Source of the DNA: an uncultured Gemmatimonadaceae bacterium
GTDB lineage: Bacteria > Gemmatimonadota > Gemmatimonadetes > Gemmatimonadales > Gemmatimonadaceae
Assembly: GCA_963822945.1 (NCBI GenBank)
Contig: CAWGJO010000006.1
Coordinates: 1-64,000 of the forward strand
Length of the DNA stretch: 64,000 bases
Direction of reading: 5' to 3'
Under the pieces are notes generated by a model. The model had not been told where the DNA came from, did not search any database, and saw only the letters and a list, made by a program, of their open reading frames with translations. Positions 1,943 through 57,518 of the stretch are shown piece after piece (the stretch's first letter is position 1; the number at the start of each line of letters is the position of its first letter). The translations under genes and the position numbers were made by a program.

Positions 1943-2236
1943 ATGCCTGCAAAACTTTCGGACGTCGAGATCCAACGGTCACTGGGCACGCTCTCCGGTT
2001 GGGCGAGACGCGGCGATGCATTGGCCAAGACGTTCACCTTTTCGCGGTTCGCCGACGGCATCGCGTTCGTGGCGAAGCTGGCCGGGATGGCCGACGCCAT
2101 GGATCACCATCCCGACATCGATATTCGCTACACGAAGGTGACGTTCACGCTGTCCACGCACTCCGCGGGCGGGATCACGCAACTGGATCTCGATCTGGCC
2201 GCGAAGATCGAGCAGGGGTTCGGCGCCGCGCCGTAG
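1943..2236 (+). CDS. phhB: Pterin-4-alpha-carbinolamine dehydratase
   Basis: DHHPDI and LSTHSAGGITQLD motifs; GGAGG RBS before ATG 1943. Confidence 0.92.
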   Translation: MPAKLSDVEIQRSLGTLSGWARRGDALAKTFTFSRFADGIAFVAKLAGMADAMDHHPDIDIRYTKVTFTLSTHSAGGITQLDLDLAAKIEQGFGAAP

Positions 2237-18140: not shown

Positions 18141-18273
18141 AAGGCCTCCGTGGATGGACGGCGGCAGAGCCAACGGTTTCGTGGGCCGCCCGTCCCTACC
18201 AGAGGTCAACTCCGTCGCCGCGCCGGCGGTCACGGAACGGGCATGAGGCCCTGGCGGGATGCGGAACCGTTAC

Positions 18274-18302
18274 TTGACAGGTCCCCGATCGCCGGTGAAG
18301 AT
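18274..18302 (+). promoter_or_regulatory. Sigma70-type promoter of the phhA leader
   Basis: TTGACA (18274-18279), 17 bp, GAAGAT (18297-18302); ATG 7 nt downstream. Confidence 0.65.
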
Positions 18303-18309
18303 TCGCGGC

Positions 18310-18393
18310 ATGACGACGCACCTCTGCGCCTGGTATTCCTACTGGTATTCGACCTCATCCACGGGCCGAAGCTGGAGGCGTGCGCACAGGTAG
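18310..18393 (+). CDS. Putative Trp/Tyr-rich attenuator leader peptide (27 aa)
   Basis: MTTHLCAWYSYWYSTSSTGRSWRRAHR-stop; WYSYWY cluster; followed by a terminator and phhA. Confidence 0.8.
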   Translation: MTTHLCAWYSYWYSTSSTGRSWRRAHR

Positions 18394-18415
18394 TCAGGCG
18401 CTGGAGTCTTTCCTC

Positions 18416-18448
18416 AGGCGGTCCGTGAAGTTCACGGGCCGCCTTTTT
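18416..18448 (+). terminator. Attenuator terminator upstream of phhA
   Basis: AGGCGGTCCGTGA-AGT-TCACGGGCCGCCT then TTTT. Confidence 0.85.
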
Positions 18449-18473
18449 CGTGTTCACCACCACCGAGGTCGCC

Positions 18474-19236
18474 ATGCTGGACGCCGCACAGAAGCTCCCA
18501 ACCGAAGAGCCGCAGTTCATCGAGCAGCGGTGGAACGAGTACACCAACGAGCAGCACGACGTGTGGGCGCTGCTCTACGAGCGGCGGATGCGCGACCTGG
18601 CCGAGCATGGCAGCGAGGTGTATCTGCGGGGCGCCGAACGGATCGGGTTGTGTCCCGACTGCGTGCCCGACCTGCGCGTGGTGAACGAGAAGCTGCGGGT
18701 GCTCACCGGGTGGCAGGCGGTGCCGGTGAGCGGGTTCCTGCCGGCGCCGGAGTTCTTCCGCTGCCTGTCGCGGCGCCTGTTCCCCACCACGGTGACCATC
18801 CGGCCGCGGGAGCAGCTCGACTACCTGCCGGAGCCCGACATCTTCCACGACGTGTTCGGGCACGTGCCGCTGCACGCGAGCCCGGCGTTCGCGGACTATC
18901 TGCAGCGGTTCGGGCAGATTGCCTGCCGGGCGGAGCGGGAGGAGCAGATTGCGGGGATGGCGCGGCTGTTCTGGTTCACCGTGGAGTTCGGGCTGGTGAG
19001 GGAGGACGACGCGGGTGAAGGTGTACGGGAGCGGGCTCATCTCGTCGCACGGCGACGCGGCGCACGCGCTGGGCCCGGAGTGCGAGCGCCGGCCGTTCAG
19101 TGTGGACGCGGTGCTGGCGCAGCCGTTCGAGATCGACCGGATGCAGGACGTGCTGTTCGTGGTGGACACCTTCGGGCTGCTCTTCCACGCGGCGCAGGAG
19201 GCGGCGGACAGGTTGGGGATTCCGGACGCCGTGTGA
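18474..19236 (+). CDS. phhA: Phenylalanine 4-monooxygenase (frameshift ~19013)
   Basis: YLPEPDIFHDVFGHVP, LFWFTVEFGL; continues KVYGSGLISS...FEIDRMQ. Confidence 0.93.
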
Positions 19237-19254: not shown

Positions 19255-19770
19255 GTGAAGACGATCACGGGCAGTAGACGATGGGTGGTAGCCGCCATGC
19301 TGGCAGTGGTGGGCATGGCGGCGGCGTGCAAGCAGGGGCCCACGCCGCAGCAGGTGGCGCAGCAACAGGCCGAGCGCGCGCAGGAAGTGGCGAGTTCGCC
19401 CTGTCCGGCCGACGGGTGGTGGAAGGAGTGCAGCCTGACAGCGCGGCTGCTGGCTGCGGGGATGGGCGTGCGGCTGGACAGCGCGCCGGCCAGGGACAGT
19501 GCCATTGCCAAGCCGGGGCTGCTGTACCACATCGGCCGTTCGACGCTCAAGGTGTTCCTGTTCGCCGATTCCGCGGAGCGGAAGGCGGCGGTGGCGAAGT
19601 TGGACACCACGGGGTTCATCGGGTACGAGGCCACGCAGTCGTACCCGCCCAAGACGTCGATGCTGCAGTCGGCCAACCTGCTGGCGCTGCTGGTGAGCCA
19701 GAGCGAGACGCAGCGGCAGCGGATCGGAGACGCGATCACGGCGGGGGCGCCGCAGCCGGCGAAGAAGTAG
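19255..19770 (+). CDS. Hypothetical lipoprotein
   Basis: Hydrophobic leader ending MAAAC. Confidence 0.65.
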   Translation: MKTITGSRRWVVAAMLAVVGMAAACKQGPTPQQVAQQQAERAQEVASSPCPADGWWKECSLTARLLAAGMGVRLDSAPARDSAIAKPGLLYHIGRSTLKVFLFADSAERKAAVAKLDTTGFIGYEATQSYPPKTSMLQSANLLALLVSQSETQRQRIGDAITAGAPQPAKK

Positions 19771-21959
19771 GGACGAGGAGGAGCACGGCCAGCACGCGCA
19801 CCGGACGGTCGCTGTCGCCGCGCGCGTGGAGTTGGGCGAACGTGCGGACGGCGTTGAGCCAGGCTTCGTCGGGCATACGTGCTTCTGCAAGTTCCTGAAG
19901 CACCTGCTCGGCGCCGGCGCCGAAGGCCGAGGTGGCGGCACGGCGCGCGTCCCGGGTGAGTGGGGCGTATCGGGCACGCAGGTGCCGCGGGCTTCGAGAT
20001 GCGATGCCGTCGATGCGGCGGAGCATCCGCCGGCGCGCGACGGCGGTGCCGATGGTCGCCGGCTCGAGCAGTCCGAGCGAATCGAGTTCCTCGCCCCACT
20101 CGTGCACGCGCGCCACGACCTCGTCGGCGAGGGCGGAATCGAAATCCGTTTCGCCGCCGCCGGCCGCCTCGACCGCGTCGAGAACGGAGGCCAGGTCATC
20201 GCGGGTTCGCAGCAGGTCGCCGCAGAGCAACCGTGTTTCGCCCGCGGCCTGAACGACGGCGAGGTAACCGGGTTCTGCTGCATGCGTCGCCGCCACCAGC
20301 GTCGGACCGGCAGGACGATCCGGGGTGGGCGCGAGCCAACGCTCCAACGCCTGCGTGAGCCGGCCGGCCGCCGTGAGCGCGGCCGGAGACTCGACGGCGG
20401 GGGCAGCGAAGAGGCGCGGCACGATCGCCCCCCGGATTCCGACCGCGCGCGCGGCTTCGCGCAACTTGCGGCGCAGGTGGGCTTCGAGCTGGAGCAGCTT
20501 GTTCGCGCCGGCGGGCGGCCGCATTGCGTAGACGAAGACCTCATCGTGCGGCGATCCCATACGCCGGATCCGGCCGATGCGCTGTTCGCACCGCGCGGGA
20601 GTCCACGGCAGGTCGGCATGCACCACGACGTCGGCCGCCTGCAGGTTGACTCCTTCGCTGAACAGATCGGTGGTGATGAGCGTCCGGACGCGCTGCGCCG
20701 CCGGCACCCGATCGCGGCCGCCCGGCGCGAACTGGGCCAGGAGTTCACGCCGAGTGATCCGGCCGCCGGCGACGGCGCCTCCGCGGCCGGTGAGCATGGC
20801 GACCTGGCCGTACGGAGCGAGGCGCCGGTAGAGCGCCTTCACGGTCTCGCCGAACTCGGCGAACACTACGATCTGTGAATCCGCGTGGCGGCGCATCACG
20901 TCCAGCAGCGCCTCGGCTCGGGTGTCGTCCGGATCGGGGTCCATCGCCAGGGCGTGCAGCAGCCACTCCACGCCGTCGCGGTGAAAGGTCGCTTCGTCGA
21001 TGAGCGTTGCGTCGTCCGGGATGAGCGAATCGCTGGCGATCTGCGGAAAGGCCAGTTGCAGCGCGCCCTCGGTGTAGCACCAGGCCCGCAGTTGCGCGCG
21101 TGTCGGATAGCGATCGGCGTCGAACGCCTCGAGAAGCGCTTCGCACTGCGCCAGCCGCCGGCGGAGCGCCGACGCGAACGCGGCGCGGCTCGAACCCCAT
21201 TGCCGGACGAGGGAGAGTGTGAGCAGAGCGCCGCCGTCTCCGCCGTCTTCCACCGGCACCGGAGGGGGCAACTCGAGAATCTCGTCGAGAATGCGCTCGT
21301 CGGCCCGGATGTCCAGCCACTTCAGGCCGGCCACGCGTGGGAGCACGGTACCGCGCTCGCCAGGGTCGACGTTGTCCGCCTCGCGCTTCACCACGCATGC
21401 TGCCAGACCGTCGGCGTCCAGGGCGCTCGCACGGCGCCCGAGAAAGAGCGCGAGTTGGGCGCGGAGGTCGTCGAGGCGATTGTGAACGGGCGTGGCCGAG
21501 AGGAGCAGCACCGGCACGCGCGCGCAGAGTCGCGCTAGCGCGCGGTAGCGGCGCGTGGACGGGTTGCGAACGTGATGCGATTCATCCGCGATCACGAAGT
21601 CCGCGTCGAAGTTGAGCGCGCGTCCGCGGCTGAGCGCCTCGTACGATATGAACGTCGCCCCCATCCCGGCCCTGGCCAGCGCGTCGGTCCACATCCCGCG
21701 CAGGGCCGCGGGCGCCACGACGAGCAGGCGTTCCGCGTGTCGGGCCGCGGCGAGCGACGTGTAGGTCTTTCCGAACCCCACCGGATCCGCCAACATCGCG
21801 CCGCCGTATCTCGCCACGAGTTCGCGCAGGCGAGCGCCGGCCGCCCGCTGGTACGGGCGCAGCACGATGGTACCGAGCGTGTCGCGTCCCCGGGCGCCGA
21901 GCCACGCGCGCGCGATGGCCGCGCGCACGCATGTCCGCATTGCCGCGCGTCCAGTTCAT
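19736..21959 (-). CDS. SNF2-family (SF2) helicase/ATPase (probable frameshift near start)
   Basis: ADPVGFGKT, IADESH, LSATP, TTDLFSEGVNLQ, DLPWTPARCEQRIGRIRR; ATG 21959 overlaps the MTase stop (ATGA). Confidence 0.88.
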
Positions 21960-24900
21960 CGGGTGCTCCACCGAAGCAGCGGCGCCAATTGCCGCCGATC
22001 GATGCCGAATGCCTCGAGCACGCTCTCGAGAAGTTGCGCGTCGGGAATCGGGACCGGCGGGTCATGGCCCTCGAACCGCGTCACCAGCGGGGCGAGCGTT
22101 CGACGCGCGCGGTCCCAATCGGCGGGAAGGGGAAGGCGCGCCATGGTCCAACCGAGGTAACGTCGGAAGCCACCTCTTGCGGGCTCGGCGAGCACGTGCG
22201 ACCACGCGGCCGCCACGGGCGAGTTGAGGATCGCGGCGAGAGTACGCGCGTCGTCCGCGTCCGCGCAGCGAATGACGTAGCAGGTGTTCATCGGCACGGT
22301 CGGGTCGCCGGCCGGCAGGACGAGCGCCCGCGGCCGCCGCCCGAAGTCGGCCCAGACGACGCGCGGGACATCGGAGCGAGCGCCGTCCGTGCGGAAGAGC
22401 GTCCACCAGGGGCACTTGCCGTGCGCATCGGTACGCGCGGCCAGACGATGCCGGTAGCGCGAGAGCCACCGTCGGGTGCGGGGCGGCAACTCCCGAAGCG
22501 CTACTCCGCGTTCGTCGCACGGCCAGACGATGCGCTCGCGATCACCGGTGCTCACCCAGGGCCGAAGAGTCTCCCCGCGAACGACCGGCCGAAGGTGGCG
22601 GCACTCGAGTTCGCCGGTCTTGCCCCCGGCGGCGCGAACCGTCGCGACCCCGCCGCGCGCGTCGAGCAACTCGACCACGAACGCGTCGTTGCACCCGCTC
22701 TTCACGCCGAGCAGCGGGCGGCCGACGGGTCCGTCGGCGAGCGGGACGCCGATGCGTGTCAGGCGATCGAACGCAGCACGCACCGCCGGCGGGAGCAGCA
22801 GCCACGGGCTTCCGGCGGTGTCGTCGAGCGTGAGTCCGCTCGGCGGGAGGTGCCATGCCTCCCGCGTCCCGTGCCGGTGCACGGCGATCGCGATCGGTTG
22901 GCGGACGGCGTCGCCGATTGCCGGCGGTTTGCGGGCGACGAGCAGGGACGGGTAGACGGCCGCGTCGAAGAGAGCGGGGGCGTCAGAGTAGTCCTCGACG
23001 CGCACCACCCGCGCATGCTCGTCCACGAGACGCCGCACTCCGCCGCCGGCGAGCGACCGCCAGAGCTTGGCGGGAAGGAGCAGGGCGAGCGTTCCGCCGT
23101 TGGCAAGCAGCGCGACGCTGCGCTCGACGAACAACGCCGCGAGGTCGACCTGGCCGGCGAACCCCGCCGACGCGTGCGCCGCGGCGGCCCCGGGCTCCCA
23201 CTGCGCGCGGCGGAAGACGAAGTAGTCGGCCTGGAGCCGCGCGCGTTCTCTCGCCGGAATGCGGTGCAGCCGCACCCACGGCGGGTTGCCGATCACGACG
23301 TCGAATCCTCCCCGGTCGCCGATGTCTGCGAAGTGCACGGGAAAGGAGAAGGGGAGCGCGCCGCCGTCGGCCAGTCGGCGATGCTCGCGCTGCAGCACCA
23401 CCACACGGCGTCGGAGCGATGTCAGATCCCGGCGGTCAGCGGCCGTGAGGCGATGCCGCTCGCCGAACAGATCGCGCCCACGGTGCGCCAGCACCGCTTC
23501 ACGACGGGCGTGCCGCGCGGCGGTCAACTCGCGCTCCAGCAGACTCAACGCTCGTGATCGCTCCCGGCGATCGAGCGTCCGGCCGAGCGTCGACTTGCGG
23601 GCGCCCGTGGCTCGCGCGTAGCGGCGGTGGAGGAGTGCGAGCTTGGACGAGCCCGCGGCGTGTGGTCCGTCAGCCGCTCCGAAGCCGGGACCGGAGAGCG
23701 AGTCGCCGACGCGTACGTTGCGATCGAGATTCGGGAGCGGAGCGACGGCTAGCGGATCGGCGACGTCGCACTCGATAACCACGGCGAGCCAGAGCCGGAG
23801 TTCGCACAGCCAGACGGCCGTCGGGTTCCGGTCGACGCCGAACAGCGATGCGGTCAATACGTCCCGGCGCACCGCGCTCACGGGTCGCCGGTCGCCGAGC
23901 ACGATCCGGAGATCGGCAAGGCGGTGCAACGCGTGCACGAGAAAGGCCCCTGAGCCGCACGCCGGGTCGAGCAGGGTGGCGCGCGCGAGACGCCGGCGGA
24001 ACTCCTCGTGATCAGCGACCGGCGGCGCGCCCTCTACGAGCAGGCGAGCGGCGTCGGACTCCGATAATCCGGTCGCGACGAGCAACTGCTCGAGCGCCTG
24101 ATCGGTGACGCGTTCGACGAGGCGCTGTGGGGTGAAGAATGCGCCGCTGTCTCGGCGGTCGTGCGATGCCATGAGCGATTCGAACGCTCGGCCGAGCATC
24201 TCCGGATCGACGGCGGCGTCGCTCCACGTGGTCGAATCCTCACGCGCCGTGAAGCGGTATCGGGAGAACAGATCGCCGACGATTGCGCCGAGGGCCCGGT
24301 CGGCAAAGACGAGGTCGCGGTTGCGTCGTTCGACCGGCGTGGGCGCGAAGAGGCCGCCGTTCAGGAACGGGATGCGGCCGAGGGCGCGGGCGGTCGGGGC
24401 GCGCCGGGCCAGCGGTGTGTTGAGCGTGCCGAAGAAGAGCGGGCGAAGCACGCGTGCGTGAAACCGCCCGCCCGCTGCCGCGCAGGCATCGAAGCTCTCG
24501 ATGAGGTACGTGCGGCGGCCGTCGAGCCACCCCTTGGCTTCGAGGAACGCGAGAAAGAGGAGGCGCGAGGTGTAGAGGAGGGCGAGCGTGCGCCGGTCGT
24601 CGGGCGGGCAGCGTCCCGGTGCCGACGTTGCGAGATCGGTCACTCGCCGCTCGAGTTCGCGGTAGAACCGCCGGCAGAGCGCGTCGCGGCCCAGGACCTC
24701 AGTCCATCGGAGGTGCTGGAGACCGGCATCCGTGTTCGCGCCCGATTGAAGGGCGCAGATCGTCTCGGCGTCGCTGACGCGCACCTGCCGGCGATCGACG
24801 AGCAGCGATCGGACGCGCGGGGGACGGCGGTCACCGCTCCAGGCGGCGAGCGCAAGGGACGCGTCGCGGTTGTCGGCCAGGGCGACCAGGCACAGCAGGT

Positions 24901-25174
24901 GAGGCGCGTGCGATTGCAGGCGCGCGGCGATACGGGGAAGCTGTTCGCGGAGCGGGGGGCCGGCCCCGATCACCCCCGCGAGCGCGCATCCGCCGTTGCC
25001 CACGGGAATGAATGTCAGATCGCGGAATGACTCGGTAAGGCCGATCGCCGAGCGGCGACCCGCGTCGAGTGGTCGGGCGACTCCGTCGATCCCGACCGAC
25101 GCCAGCAGCGTGGCGATCGCGTGCGGAGAATCCGCGGCGGCCAGGAGGGCGGCCGCGGTACGGGGGGAGAGCAC
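21956..25174 (-). CDS. Large N6-adenine DNA methyltransferase (type IIG/Eco57I-like architecture), 1072 aa
   Basis: IPFLNGGLF, DPEMLGRAFE, GAFFTP, LDPACGSGAFL, FDVVIGNPPW; TaqI-like C-terminal recognition region. Confidence 0.9.
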   Translation of the reverse strand: MLSPRTAAALLAAADSPHAIATLLASVGIDGVARPLDAGRRSAIGLTESFRDLTFIPVGNGGCALAGVIGAGPPLREQLPRIAARLQSHAPHLLCLVALADNRDASLALAAWSGDRRPPRVRSLLVDRRQVRVSDAETICALQSGANTDAGLQHLRWTEVLGRDALCRRFYRELERRVTDLATSAPGRCPPDDRRTLALLYTSRLLFLAFLEAKGWLDGRRTYLIESFDACAAAGGRFHARVLRPLFFGTLNTPLARRAPTARALGRIPFLNGGLFAPTPVERRNRDLVFADRALGAIVGDLFSRYRFTAREDSTTWSDAAVDPEMLGRAFESLMASHDRRDSGAFFTPQRLVERVTDQALEQLLVATGLSESDAARLLVEGAPPVADHEEFRRRLARATLLDPACGSGAFLVHALHRLADLRIVLGDRRPVSAVRRDVLTASLFGVDRNPTAVWLCELRLWLAVVIECDVADPLAVAPLPNLDRNVRVGDSLSGPGFGAADGPHAAGSSKLALLHRRYARATGARKSTLGRTLDRRERSRALSLLERELTAARHARREAVLAHRGRDLFGERHRLTAADRRDLTSLRRRVVVLQREHRRLADGGALPFSFPVHFADIGDRGGFDVVIGNPPWVRLHRIPARERARLQADYFVFRRAQWEPGAAAAHASAGFAGQVDLAALFVERSVALLANGGTLALLLPAKLWRSLAGGGVRRLVDEHARVVRVEDYSDAPALFDAAVYPSLLVARKPPAIGDAVRQPIAIAVHRHGTREAWHLPPSGLTLDDTAGSPWLLLPPAVRAAFDRLTRIGVPLADGPVGRPLLGVKSGCNDAFVVELLDARGGVATVRAAGGKTGELECRHLRPVVRGETLRPWVSTGDRERIVWPCDERGVALRELPPRTRRWLSRYRHRLAARTDAHGKCPWWTLFRTDGARSDVPRVVWADFGRRPRALVLPAGDPTVPMNTCYVIRCADADDARTLAAILNSPVAAAWSHVLAEPARGGFRRYLGWTMARLPLPADWDRARRTLAPLVTRFEGHDPPVPIPDAQLLESVLEAFGIDRRQLAPLLRWSTR

Positions 25175-25250
25175 GCGAGCACGCTACCTCGCCCCGCCAA
25201 CCGCACCGCCATCACCGCACTGCGAACCGGCTCAATTCACGCCGTCAACC

Positions 25251-27370
25251 CTACGGCAACCGCTCCGCCGTGAACGAGACGATCACCGTCCGCGGCATCC
25301 CCGGCTCGTACGCCGCCGGCTGCACCGTTCACCAGATCGGGGTTCAGGAACGCCGATCCGATGTACCGCGTGTCGGCCAGGTTCTGCACCGACACGAATC
25401 CGCGGATCCCCACGCCGCCGGCGCTCAGCAGCGGCCGCCGCCACTCCAGCGTGAAGTTGAGAATGCTGTGCCCCGCCACCCGCACCAGGTTGGCGTCGTC
25501 GGCAAAGTACCCGCTCGCATGCTCCAGCCCCAGCTTCACCCGCGGCGCGTATGCACCGCTGAACTGCGTGCCCACCTCCACGTTGGCCATCAGGTCGGGC
25601 ACGCCCATCACCTTGTGCCCGCTGAAGTCGGCCGTGGCGCCGGGGCTGCCCAGATACGTGCTGTCCACCACGTAGTCCAGATACCGGTTGCGCGACCAGG
25701 TGAACGCGGCGTTGGCGAACACGCCGCGCGGCCCCTGCGCGGTGAGCCCCAACTCCGCCCCGCTGCGCCGCCCGCGCGCCGCCGTGAGATAGAACCGGCC
25801 GCCGTTGTAGGGGATGATCTCGTTGGACACCTCGATGTCGTACAGCGCCAGGTCCGACGAGATCCAGAACGCCGCCGCCTGCAGCCCCACCGTCTTGTAA
25901 CCCACCTCGTAGCTGGTGGAACGAATGGGGTCGAGCAGCGGGTTGATGCCCACGGGCGGCATTCCCGGCCCCACATCGGTCTCGTTGCCCGCCGGCACCT
26001 CGATGCCCCCGCCCACGTTGGCATACGCGTTGGACGTGGCCGAGGTGCGCCAGCTCAGCCCCAGCTTGGGCGTCACGTGCGTGAACGCGCGGCTGTCGTT
26101 GAGCGACGGGTCGATGTAGCTGTGCGCGTAGTACGTCACGTTGTCGAAGCGCGCGCCGGCGGACAGGGTCACACGGTCGCCGAGCGGGAACTCGCCCTGC
26201 GCGAAGGCGCCCAGATTGTTGGCGCCCTCGCCCTTGTTGTCGCGCAGATCGGGGCCCCGCTGGCCGTCCACCAGCGAGTAGAAGAGAATCGCCCCGTCCT
26301 GAAACGCCTCGTCGGCGCCCGCCGTGACGCGCAACTCGCGCCCCGACGGCAGCACGAAGCTGTGCCGGCCCACCACGTTGCCCCCCACGTGGTAGCGCGT
26401 GAAGTCGCGGTAGGTGCCGCGCTCGGAACGCTGCAGGTACTTGGGACTCACGAACACCATTCCCGACAGCGACGTCGCCGAGTCCACCTGGTGTTCCACC
26501 GTGGCCCCCAGCCGCGCGATGCGGTTGTACCGGCGCTCGTCGCGCGAGGCGTACGTGGCGTTGGCCTGCCGCGGATCGGCCGTCACCTCGGCCATGGTGA
26601 GCGGCCCCGGAATGCGGAACAGGTTGTTGGCGCCGGACGCGTACACGCCCAGCCGCGTGCGCGTCGCCCATCATCCCCACCACGCCCGCGTTCACCAGCG
26701 AGCGCCGCGCCCCCGAGTGGTCGCGCCAGCCGTCGAACGACGTGTTGGTGAAGTTCACGTACGCCATGCCGCTGCCGGTGGGCGCCGACAGGCGCGTGGA
26801 ATAGCGGGCCAGTCCGTAGCCGCCGAACATCGGCTGGAAGTCGAACGCCGGCGCGCTGCCCGTGGGCACGGTGCGCACGTTGATCACGCCGCCGGCCGCG
26901 TTGCCCCACACCGCCGACGCGTTGGACCGGATCACCTCCACGCCCTCGGCGGCGGCGAGGTCGATCTGGTCGAACGCCGTGCGCCCGTCGGGCTCGGTTT
27001 CCGGAAAGCCGTCCACGAGCACGCGCACGCCGCGCGACGTGCCGGCGTTGGAGCGGTCGCCGGCGCCGCGGGCGCCGAAGCCGCGGATCACCAGCCGCAC
27101 GTCGCTGGTGCCGTAGCGCGACTGGGCCACCACGCCCGGCACCATGGTGAGCGCCTCGTCCAGCCCGAAGCCGCGCAGCGAGCGGAGCTCGAGCGCGGGG
27201 ATGCTGGTGACGGCCAGCGGCGTGGTGAGAATCAGCGAGGGGGCGCGGGTGGCGGTGACGGTCACGCCGCGCAGGGCGACGGCGCTGTCGCGCGTGCCGG
27301 CATTCTGCGCCAGCGCAGGAGGGGCGAGCAGGACGCCGAGCACGGCGACGGCAACGACACGGGTACGCAT
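25251..27370 (-). CDS. TonB-dependent receptor (frameshifts ~26660 and ~25310)
   Basis: Signal peptide, VTVTATR, plug IRGFG...VLVDG...VEVIRSNASAVWGNAAGGVIN; barrel ending VQNLADTRY...PGMPRTV. Confidence 0.88.
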
Positions 27371-55790: not shown

Positions 55791-55863
55791 GGGGCTGTAG
55801 CTCAGCTGGGAGAGCGCTGCAATCGCACTGCAGAGGTCAGGGGTTCGATCCCCCTCAGCTCCA
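55791..55863 (+). tRNA. tRNA-Ala (CGC), CCA not encoded
   Basis: GGGGCTG...CAGCTCC-A; anticodon arm CTGCA-ATCGCAC-TGCAG; GGTTCGATCC T-arm. Confidence 0.95.
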
Positions 55864-57445: not shown

Positions 57446-57518
57446 TGCCCCTTGGTGTAACTGGCAACACGCCTGACTCTGGATCAGGAGAGTCCTGGTT
57501 CGATCCCAGGAGGGGCAA
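57446..57518 (+). tRNA. tRNA-Gln (CTG), CCA not encoded
   Basis: TGCCCCT...AGGGGCA-A; anticodon arm CCTGA-CTCTGGA-TCAGG; GGTTCGATCC T-arm. Confidence 0.95.

Follow-up and report, generated by a model that had tools for sequence, protein, structure and literature searches.

A predicted tyrosine-responsive leader-peptide attenuator upstream of phhA in Gemmatimonadota

The 64,000-nucleotide stretch of DNA analysed here (the window) comes from a Gemmatimonadaceae MAG and contains a gene of the phenylalanine 4-monooxygenase family, phhA, which is preceded by a short leader ORF, a repeated nine-base word and an intrinsic terminator. The features discussed below are:

1952..2215, plus strand: pterin-4a-carbinolamine dehydratase domain (phhB-like; PF01329), unlinked, 16 kb upstream of phhA
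18274..18279, plus strand: -35 hexamer TTGACA of a predicted promoter, from sequence and conserved as TTG[AC]
18297..18302, plus strand: -10 hexamer GAAGAT of the predicted promoter, 17 nt after the -35, with the leader ATG 7 nt further on
18310..18393, plus strand: leader ORF P0001, 27 aa, from ORF reading and conservation
18331..18348, plus strand: sensing codons 8-13 (W Y S Y W Y), in which Tyr is the conserved part
18338..18378, plus strand: 1:2 hairpin (anti-antiterminator, possible pause), from folding and covariation
18360..18368, plus strand: antiterminator strand CACGGGCCG, from its pairing with the terminator 5' arm and from conservation
18416..18448, plus strand: intrinsic terminator, with 5' arm 18416-18428, 3' arm 18432-18444 and a T-run to 18448
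18465..18469, plus strand: Shine-Dalgarno-like GAGGT of phhA, from sequence
18474..19236, plus strand: phhA, with an extra base near 19011 in the assembly
55791..55863 and 57446..57518: two tRNA genes, from Rfam

The word CACGGGCCG occurs twice, at 18360-18368 and again at 18433-18441. A preliminary description of this DNA had pointed out the promoter, the 27-aa ORF with its Trp/Tyr cluster, the terminator and the repeated 9-mer, and all of its coordinates are right; the 1:2 hairpin and the extra base in phhA are new relative to it. At gathering score, Rfam returned nothing in the 64-kb window beyond the two tRNAs, and at E<=10 the interval 18150-18550 had no match to any family, including the Trp, His, Phe, Thr and Leu leaders and the T-box. 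The phhA element appears to work like the Rfam leader families while belonging to none of them by sequence.

The gene itself is split into two frames by a single extra base near 19011. Both halves match NCBIfam PRK11913, and PF00351 (Biopterin_H) is present; because of the frameshift each half alone falls below the whole-protein cut-off. The protein is closest to PRK11913/TIGR01267, retains the HxxFGH motif and the Glu iron ligands, and scores much lower with models of Trp or Tyr hydroxylases; the best solved relatives of the intact protein from a relative, G012, are bacterial Phe-4-hydroxylases. PhhA would then convert Phe to Tyr. As the extra base is absent from G012 (99% identical protein) and from contigs of the public runs X1 and X2, it is probably an assembly error, the alternative being a strain-private mutation. 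Elsewhere in the window, a TonB-receptor-like gene (25237-27370, minus strand) seems to be broken between two frames, a sign that the assembly may have other indel errors as well. The interval 19736-25174 (minus strand) holds an adenine-methyltransferase-like gene with weak PglX/MAD2 matches and then an SNF2-like helicase gene whose DrmD/DpdE matches are below cut-off; a defence pair is possible.

The conservation of the leader was assessed at 110 phhA loci, in sets of 30 and 80, with a picking rule that uses the terminator word and the position of the ORF and is blind to amino acids. It yields 51 distinct leaders of 22-43 codons; the other 59 loci are 3 duplicates, 2 without upstream DNA, 9 near-clade loci lacking the element, 5 from a distant clade, 19 from Acidobacteriaceae and 21 of Planctomycetota type. 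The preliminary description had named conservation of the W/Y codons and stem covariation as checks; the Tyr codons prove to be conserved, and the 1:2 hairpin and terminator covary (both below). Among the near-clade Gemmatimonadota phhA loci that have DNA upstream, 49 of 58 carry leader ORF and terminator, and the 1:2 hairpin and the antiterminator word recur with them. Two Acidobacteriota phhA loci also carry leader and terminator. The rule finds no leader before nine near-clade genes, six of which form one subclade, nor before the 19 Acidobacteriaceae and 21 Planctomycetota-type genes, its terminator word being specific to Gemmatimonadota, so that leaders of another design may exist there. 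Throughout, leader counts are descriptive, as kin are not independent; the 51 include L022 (from the unpublished genome G022), on which no conclusion hangs. One genome, G009, has two phhA copies (C23:20618 and C13:549368) with a full leader before each.

The -10 hexamer of the phhA leader agrees with the consensus at only three of six positions, and because of this the fact that a promoter scan called no site there is not taken as absence. It is conservation that appears to carry the predicted promoter. Of the 51 leaders, 43 have TTG[AC] at 33-39 nt 5' of the leader start, and in these 43 the spacer is 17-18 nt and the -10 takes the form (C/T)ANNNT, with A at position 2 in 43/43 and T at position 6 in 42/43, both counts being biased upward by a -10 picking rule that itself favours these bases. 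The end of the -10 is 6-7 nt from the leader start codon in 34 of the 43, and a Shine-Dalgarno-like word precedes the start in 0 of the 51 leaders. This spacing would fit a leaderless mRNA starting at the leader AUG, as had been predicted for this ORF from the single sequence. The one RNA run, X20, consists of contigs and has none over the leader. Four Tyr leaders (L037, L045, L050 and L053) have no -35 of their own and begin just past a tRNA-Gly(CCC) gene, within a few bases of it; there, 3' processing of the tRNA could be the source of a near-leaderless mRNA.

Folding gives the terminator hairpin 13 pairs at -25.1 kcal/mol (z -5.8). When the transcript is cut before the terminator 3' arm (18358-18432), 18360-18368 folds onto 18419-18427, with a z of only -0.86, so that folding energy by itself proves nothing for the antiterminator; the full transcript folds into the terminator together with the 18338-18378 hairpin, which buries the antiterminator strand. 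Antiterminator and terminator share a common 5' arm and are mutually exclusive, and the 1:2 hairpin overlaps the control codons (18338-18378 versus 18331-18348). As a control for chance, the genome was scanned for terminator-like sites, and at 8 of the 646 found the 3' arm recurs as a 9-mer copy 45-110 nt upstream.

Structural tests were made on 49 aligned leaders. The terminator is their consensus fold, with double changes in 7 of its 12 consensus pairs. For the 1:2 hairpin there are 56 double-change cells against 28.2 +/- 4.6 in shuffled alignments, a value reached in 0 of 500 shuffles, in a test that is inflated by relatedness among the leaders; slid controls give 3-20 such cells. Pairing between the antiterminator strand and the 5' arm of the terminator is possible in 93% of cells over the 49 sequences, as against 30-39% for slid controls. 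Covariation support for this helix is thin because it is almost invariant, with double changes in two pairs and three cells; in one leader (L085) all three strands have changed together at two positions.

The geometry was explored with a model that places a 27-nt ribosome footprint on the leader, assumes equilibrium folding and scores the antiterminator at >0.5. With either the first or the last Tyr codon in the A site, the antiterminator passes this threshold in 42 of 49 leaders; two codons past the last Tyr it does so in 6, and four codons past in none. In the model, then, the switch has its edge at the last Tyr codon, and the distance is kept: of 51 leaders, 43 have the last Tyr 9-15 nt ahead of the antiterminator word, 30 of them at 12 nt. 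When the ribosome is placed at the stop codon, the equilibrium model has the antiterminator re-forming in 26 of 49 leaders (0.97 in the leader shown here), and in 16 when no ribosome is present. At equilibrium, therefore, the simple picture drawn from the E. coli trp operon fails, and termination would have to rest on the order of folding.

The same element is found before other genes. When a covariance model (R1) was run on 61 genomes, a second strong copy appeared in exactly the five genomes of this genus that bear tyrA (E 1e-13 to 1e-21, rough values). These copies lie 0.4-1.6 kb upstream of tyrA and have 3-5 Tyr codons and no Trp; the next gene encodes DAHP synthase in four and chorismate mutase in one, with prephenate dehydrogenase downstream. 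In G040 an R1 copy precedes a CM-TyrA fusion. In G020 a leader with 4 Phe and 3 Tyr codons (L122; G020:C54:22506-22651, minus strand) stands before aroF, with pheA next; tyrA was not found in that genome, and its phhA has a Tyr leader. A copy before aroF in G028 (L128; C456:2006-2144) has only 1 Tyr and 1 Trp and is no neat fit; it is possibly decayed or re-tuned.

A further 16 R1 matches are His-rich leaders. The hisG gene that follows is Pfam-confirmed for one of these matches and for the copy in our own genome (G000), and its N-terminus is visible after at least 9 more. The copy in G000 (L113; C20:770532, plus strand), a leaderless ORF and terminator before hisG, came from a separate leader scan and is not matched by R1 at E<=0.05. 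The His and Tyr leaders have in common their length, leaderless spacing, antiterminator word and terminator core, for which common descent would be the simplest reading. Seven of the 31 R1 matches away from phhA (L134, L136, L140, L143-L145 and L147) were set aside as chance terminator matches with no cognate leader. No Trp-rich leader with a terminator was found before the genome's own trp genes in the 11.5 kb examined. We consider it probable, with some reserve, that a single leaderless Gemmatimonadota chassis has been copied before different genes, with a change of control codons as its only re-tuning, to His for hisG, Tyr for phhA and aroF/tyrA, Phe plus Tyr for aroF-pheA, and Tyr plus Trp in this genus, giving a tyrosine ribulon that has recruited a normally catabolic hydroxylase as a source of Tyr.

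Two leaders of other kinds were seen in the same genome. An Asn-rich ORF of 21-23 codons with an intrinsic terminator lies directly before a tRNA-Asn(GTT) gene, which is followed by a SerA-like dehydrogenase gene:

G000:C28, ATG at 27046, minus strand: Asn leader, with tRNA-Asn at L115:5822-5895 and relatives L153-L164, L170 and L171

It is present in 14 of 20 relatives examined (13 of 14 from the genus and also G024), each with 3-6 Asn codons, 46 of 61 of them AAT, and is likely to be an attenuator controlling a tRNA gene. A Thr-rich leaderless ORF with a terminator (L114; G000:C21:291745, minus strand) precedes a 335-aa class II tRNA synthetase core that is ThrRS-like and of a short form; its terminator differs in sequence from that of the phhA leader.

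What, then, does the phhA leader sense? Tyr codons number at least two in 50 of the 51 leaders and at least three in 45, making up 12.9% of leader codons compared with 2.5% genome-wide, and they are divided between TAC (87) and TAT (84 of 171, against 18% TAT genome-wide). Phe codons are absent from 43 of the 51. The preliminary description had proposed sensing of Trp and Tyr, the product of the enzyme rather than its substrate. Product sensing is supported by the scarcity of Phe codons and by the Tyr leaders that also precede tyrA operons, and the Tyr half of the proposed specificity stands; the Trp half does not hold generally. Sensing-window codons number 210 in the 15 leaders of this genus, 50 of them Tyr and 24 Trp, and 522 in the 36 others, with 121 Tyr and 7 Trp; Trp stands at 1.4% genome-wide.

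The Trp codons of this genus could be a selected second input, making the leader a dual sensor of Tyr and Trp through which, for example, Trp shortage would drain excess Phe that inhibits DAHP synthase. Besides their number, it is suggestive that a Trp codon falls before the last Tyr in all 15 leaders of the genus, that L014 has two Trp and a single Tyr in its sensing window, and that W8 and W12 of the leader here lie inside the stall window that opens the antiterminator in the model, so that some read-through on Trp starvation is predicted whether or not it has been selected. Yet Trp is at background in the 36 other leaders and absent from the five tyrA-operon leaders of the very same genus; the fixed TGG is part of a paired stretch, the 5' arm of hairpin 1:2, and PhhA cannot make Trp. 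We regard selected dual sensing as unlikely, though it is the alternative that we take most seriously. The Tyr reading holds and the Trp reading is doubtful; Trp cross-talk would nonetheless be expected in this genus, as the model has a stall on a Trp codon opening the antiterminator.

It is improbable, to a much greater degree, that the terminator acts constitutively or yields a small RNA, with an ORF that is incidental, or that the leader peptide itself acts in the manner of an arrest peptide. The terminator does dominate the full-length fold, and there is fair conservation in the C-terminal half of the peptide (TGR, Arg-rich), but the residues that are conserved have their codons in paired RNA segments, the N-terminal half is variable except for Tyr, the spacing from Tyr to antiterminator is fixed, and hisG is preceded by the same chassis with His codons in it. 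The least credible reading of all is a leader that reports the overall speed of translation, or the modification state of tRNAs, rather than Tyr supply. Queuosine-modified tRNAs do read the codons for Tyr, His and Asn alike, leaders for all three are in this genome, and codons ending in U, the rarer ones, are used in excess (TAT as above; AAT in 46 of 61 cases in the Asn leaders against 17% genome-wide), yet codon type follows pathway: Tyr with phhA and tyrA, Phe plus Tyr with aroF-pheA, His with hisG, and Thr with the class II synthetase core.

A Tyr-supplying role for phhA, as originally suggested, gains support from the presence of the element before tyrA operons too. Neither tyrA nor pheA was found in G000, which is 88% complete; the genome does have chorismate synthase (aroC), DAHP synthase, trpA, the phhB domain and, on another contig, hppD. 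The phhB-like domain in the window presumably recycles the cofactor of PhhA, a link that we take from the known pathway. An absence of tyrA, the point that the preliminary description wanted checked, fits what was found in G000 but does not extend to all genomes with an attenuated phhA, tyrA being found in 8 of 23 of these. In the genus, tyrA is found in 5 of 16 genomes and pheA in 0 of 16, so that phhA would convert imported Phe rather than complete a de novo route.

Gemmatimonadota also have a second phhA clade, whose members lie beside fahA or hppD, are at 44-52% identity and are set off by a long branch with a support of 100, in a quick tree that leaves out 10 of the 110 loci and is used for that branch only. 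A leader was found at none of the five loci of this clade. Both clades are carried by G018, and there is a counter-case in G034, where an attenuated phhA is directly followed by hppD. HgmA_C was found in 0 of 61 genomes, even those with fahA, which is probably a query miss and not evidence.

Taken with the spacing, the covariation of the 1:2 hairpin and terminator, the geometry and the occurrence of the same element before aroF/tyrA operons, conservation leads us to conclude that the phhA leader is very probably a Tyr-responsive, ribosome-mediated transcription attenuator that turns phhA on when charged tRNA-Tyr is scarce; attenuation by a translated leader peptide, the core of the original proposal, is what these same lines of evidence favour. 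Transcription would start at the leader AUG. When charged tRNA-Tyr is short, the ribosome would stall on codons 9-13 and cover segment 1, leaving 18360-18368 free to pair with 18419-18427 so that the terminator cannot form. When Tyr is plentiful, the ribosome would run over the antiterminator strand, the 1:2 hairpin would re-form behind it or after its release, and transcription would end near 18448. Termination under these conditions would depend on the local 1:2 hairpin re-forming before segment 3 appears. As neither tyrA nor pheA was found in G000, PhhA would supply Tyr from imported or recycled Phe, and together with the aroF/tyrA copies it would belong to a tyrosine 'ribulon' that has its RNA chassis in common with the phylum's hisG attenuator.

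Known leader-peptide attenuators respond to Trp, Phe, His, Thr, Leu/Ile/Val and Cys, with trpL, pheL-pheA, hisL and thrL as the enterobacterial examples. The phhA element resembles these in having a short ORF with cognate codons, a 1:2 hairpin, an exclusive antiterminator and a terminator before a gene that supplies the amino acid. It differs in sensing Tyr, in its leaderless start, in having no Rfam match, in a leader stop codon that lies ~8 codons beyond the antiterminator strand, and in controlling a hydroxylase usually regarded as catabolic. The Tyr T-box controls tyrS and, in the Bacillus cereus group, phhA, and would follow the same logic, in that uncharged tRNA-Tyr induces Tyr supply; it binds the tRNA directly, whereas the phhA element uses a translated ORF and has no T-box match.

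The mechanism of attenuation at trpL has been described (PMC13602947). A parallel for the leaderless and repeated arrangement is the Cys 'ribulon' of mycobacteria, in which polycysteine leaderless sORFs act as attenuators (bioRxiv 10.1101/834739): as here, leaderless sensory ORFs precede several operons and respond to one amino acid, but the amino acid is Cys and the output is occlusion of a ribosome-binding site, rather than Tyr and an intrinsic terminator in another phylum. Predicted uORF-terminator attenuators outside enterobacteria include uORFC-13-1, with a Phe codon and located before aroF in Acholeplasma, and uORFC-8-2, with Cys codons and located before cysS in Rhodobacterales (PMC8632094); unlike the phhA element, they use Phe or Cys rather than Tyr and are not before phhA. 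The main text and one supplementary file of PMC8632094 mention neither phhA nor Gemmatimonads, and passage searches of that paper, PMC11109978 and PMC2965389 turned up no phhA or Tyr leader. Table 7 of PMC1173090 gives tyrA operons with putative attenuators in front of them, and in the rows examined none is from Gemmatimonadota or before phhA. The phhABC operon of Pseudomonas aeruginosa has a sigma-54 promoter, the protein activator PhhR and a catabolic role (PMC1173090), whereas here a gene for the same enzyme family is unlinked from phhB and hppD and lies behind a predicted RNA switch. In a literature scope without most subscription papers and the older comparative surveys of attenuation, we found no description of a Tyr-specific leader attenuator or of a phhA leader.

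Being short, leaderless and terminator-based, the element might find use as a tyrosine sensor. The chassis common to His, Tyr and Phe leaders makes a change of attenuator specificity testable by codon swaps in one reporter and, if the idea of a shared chassis is true, would offer a natural series showing how such specificity evolves. Gemmatimonadota are an abundant soil phylum of which little has been cultured. A regulatory signal of this kind assigns function, in that it would distinguish a phhA clade that supplies Tyr from one that is catabolic, and on the attenuator reading this genus is predicted to live on phenylalanine that it imports.
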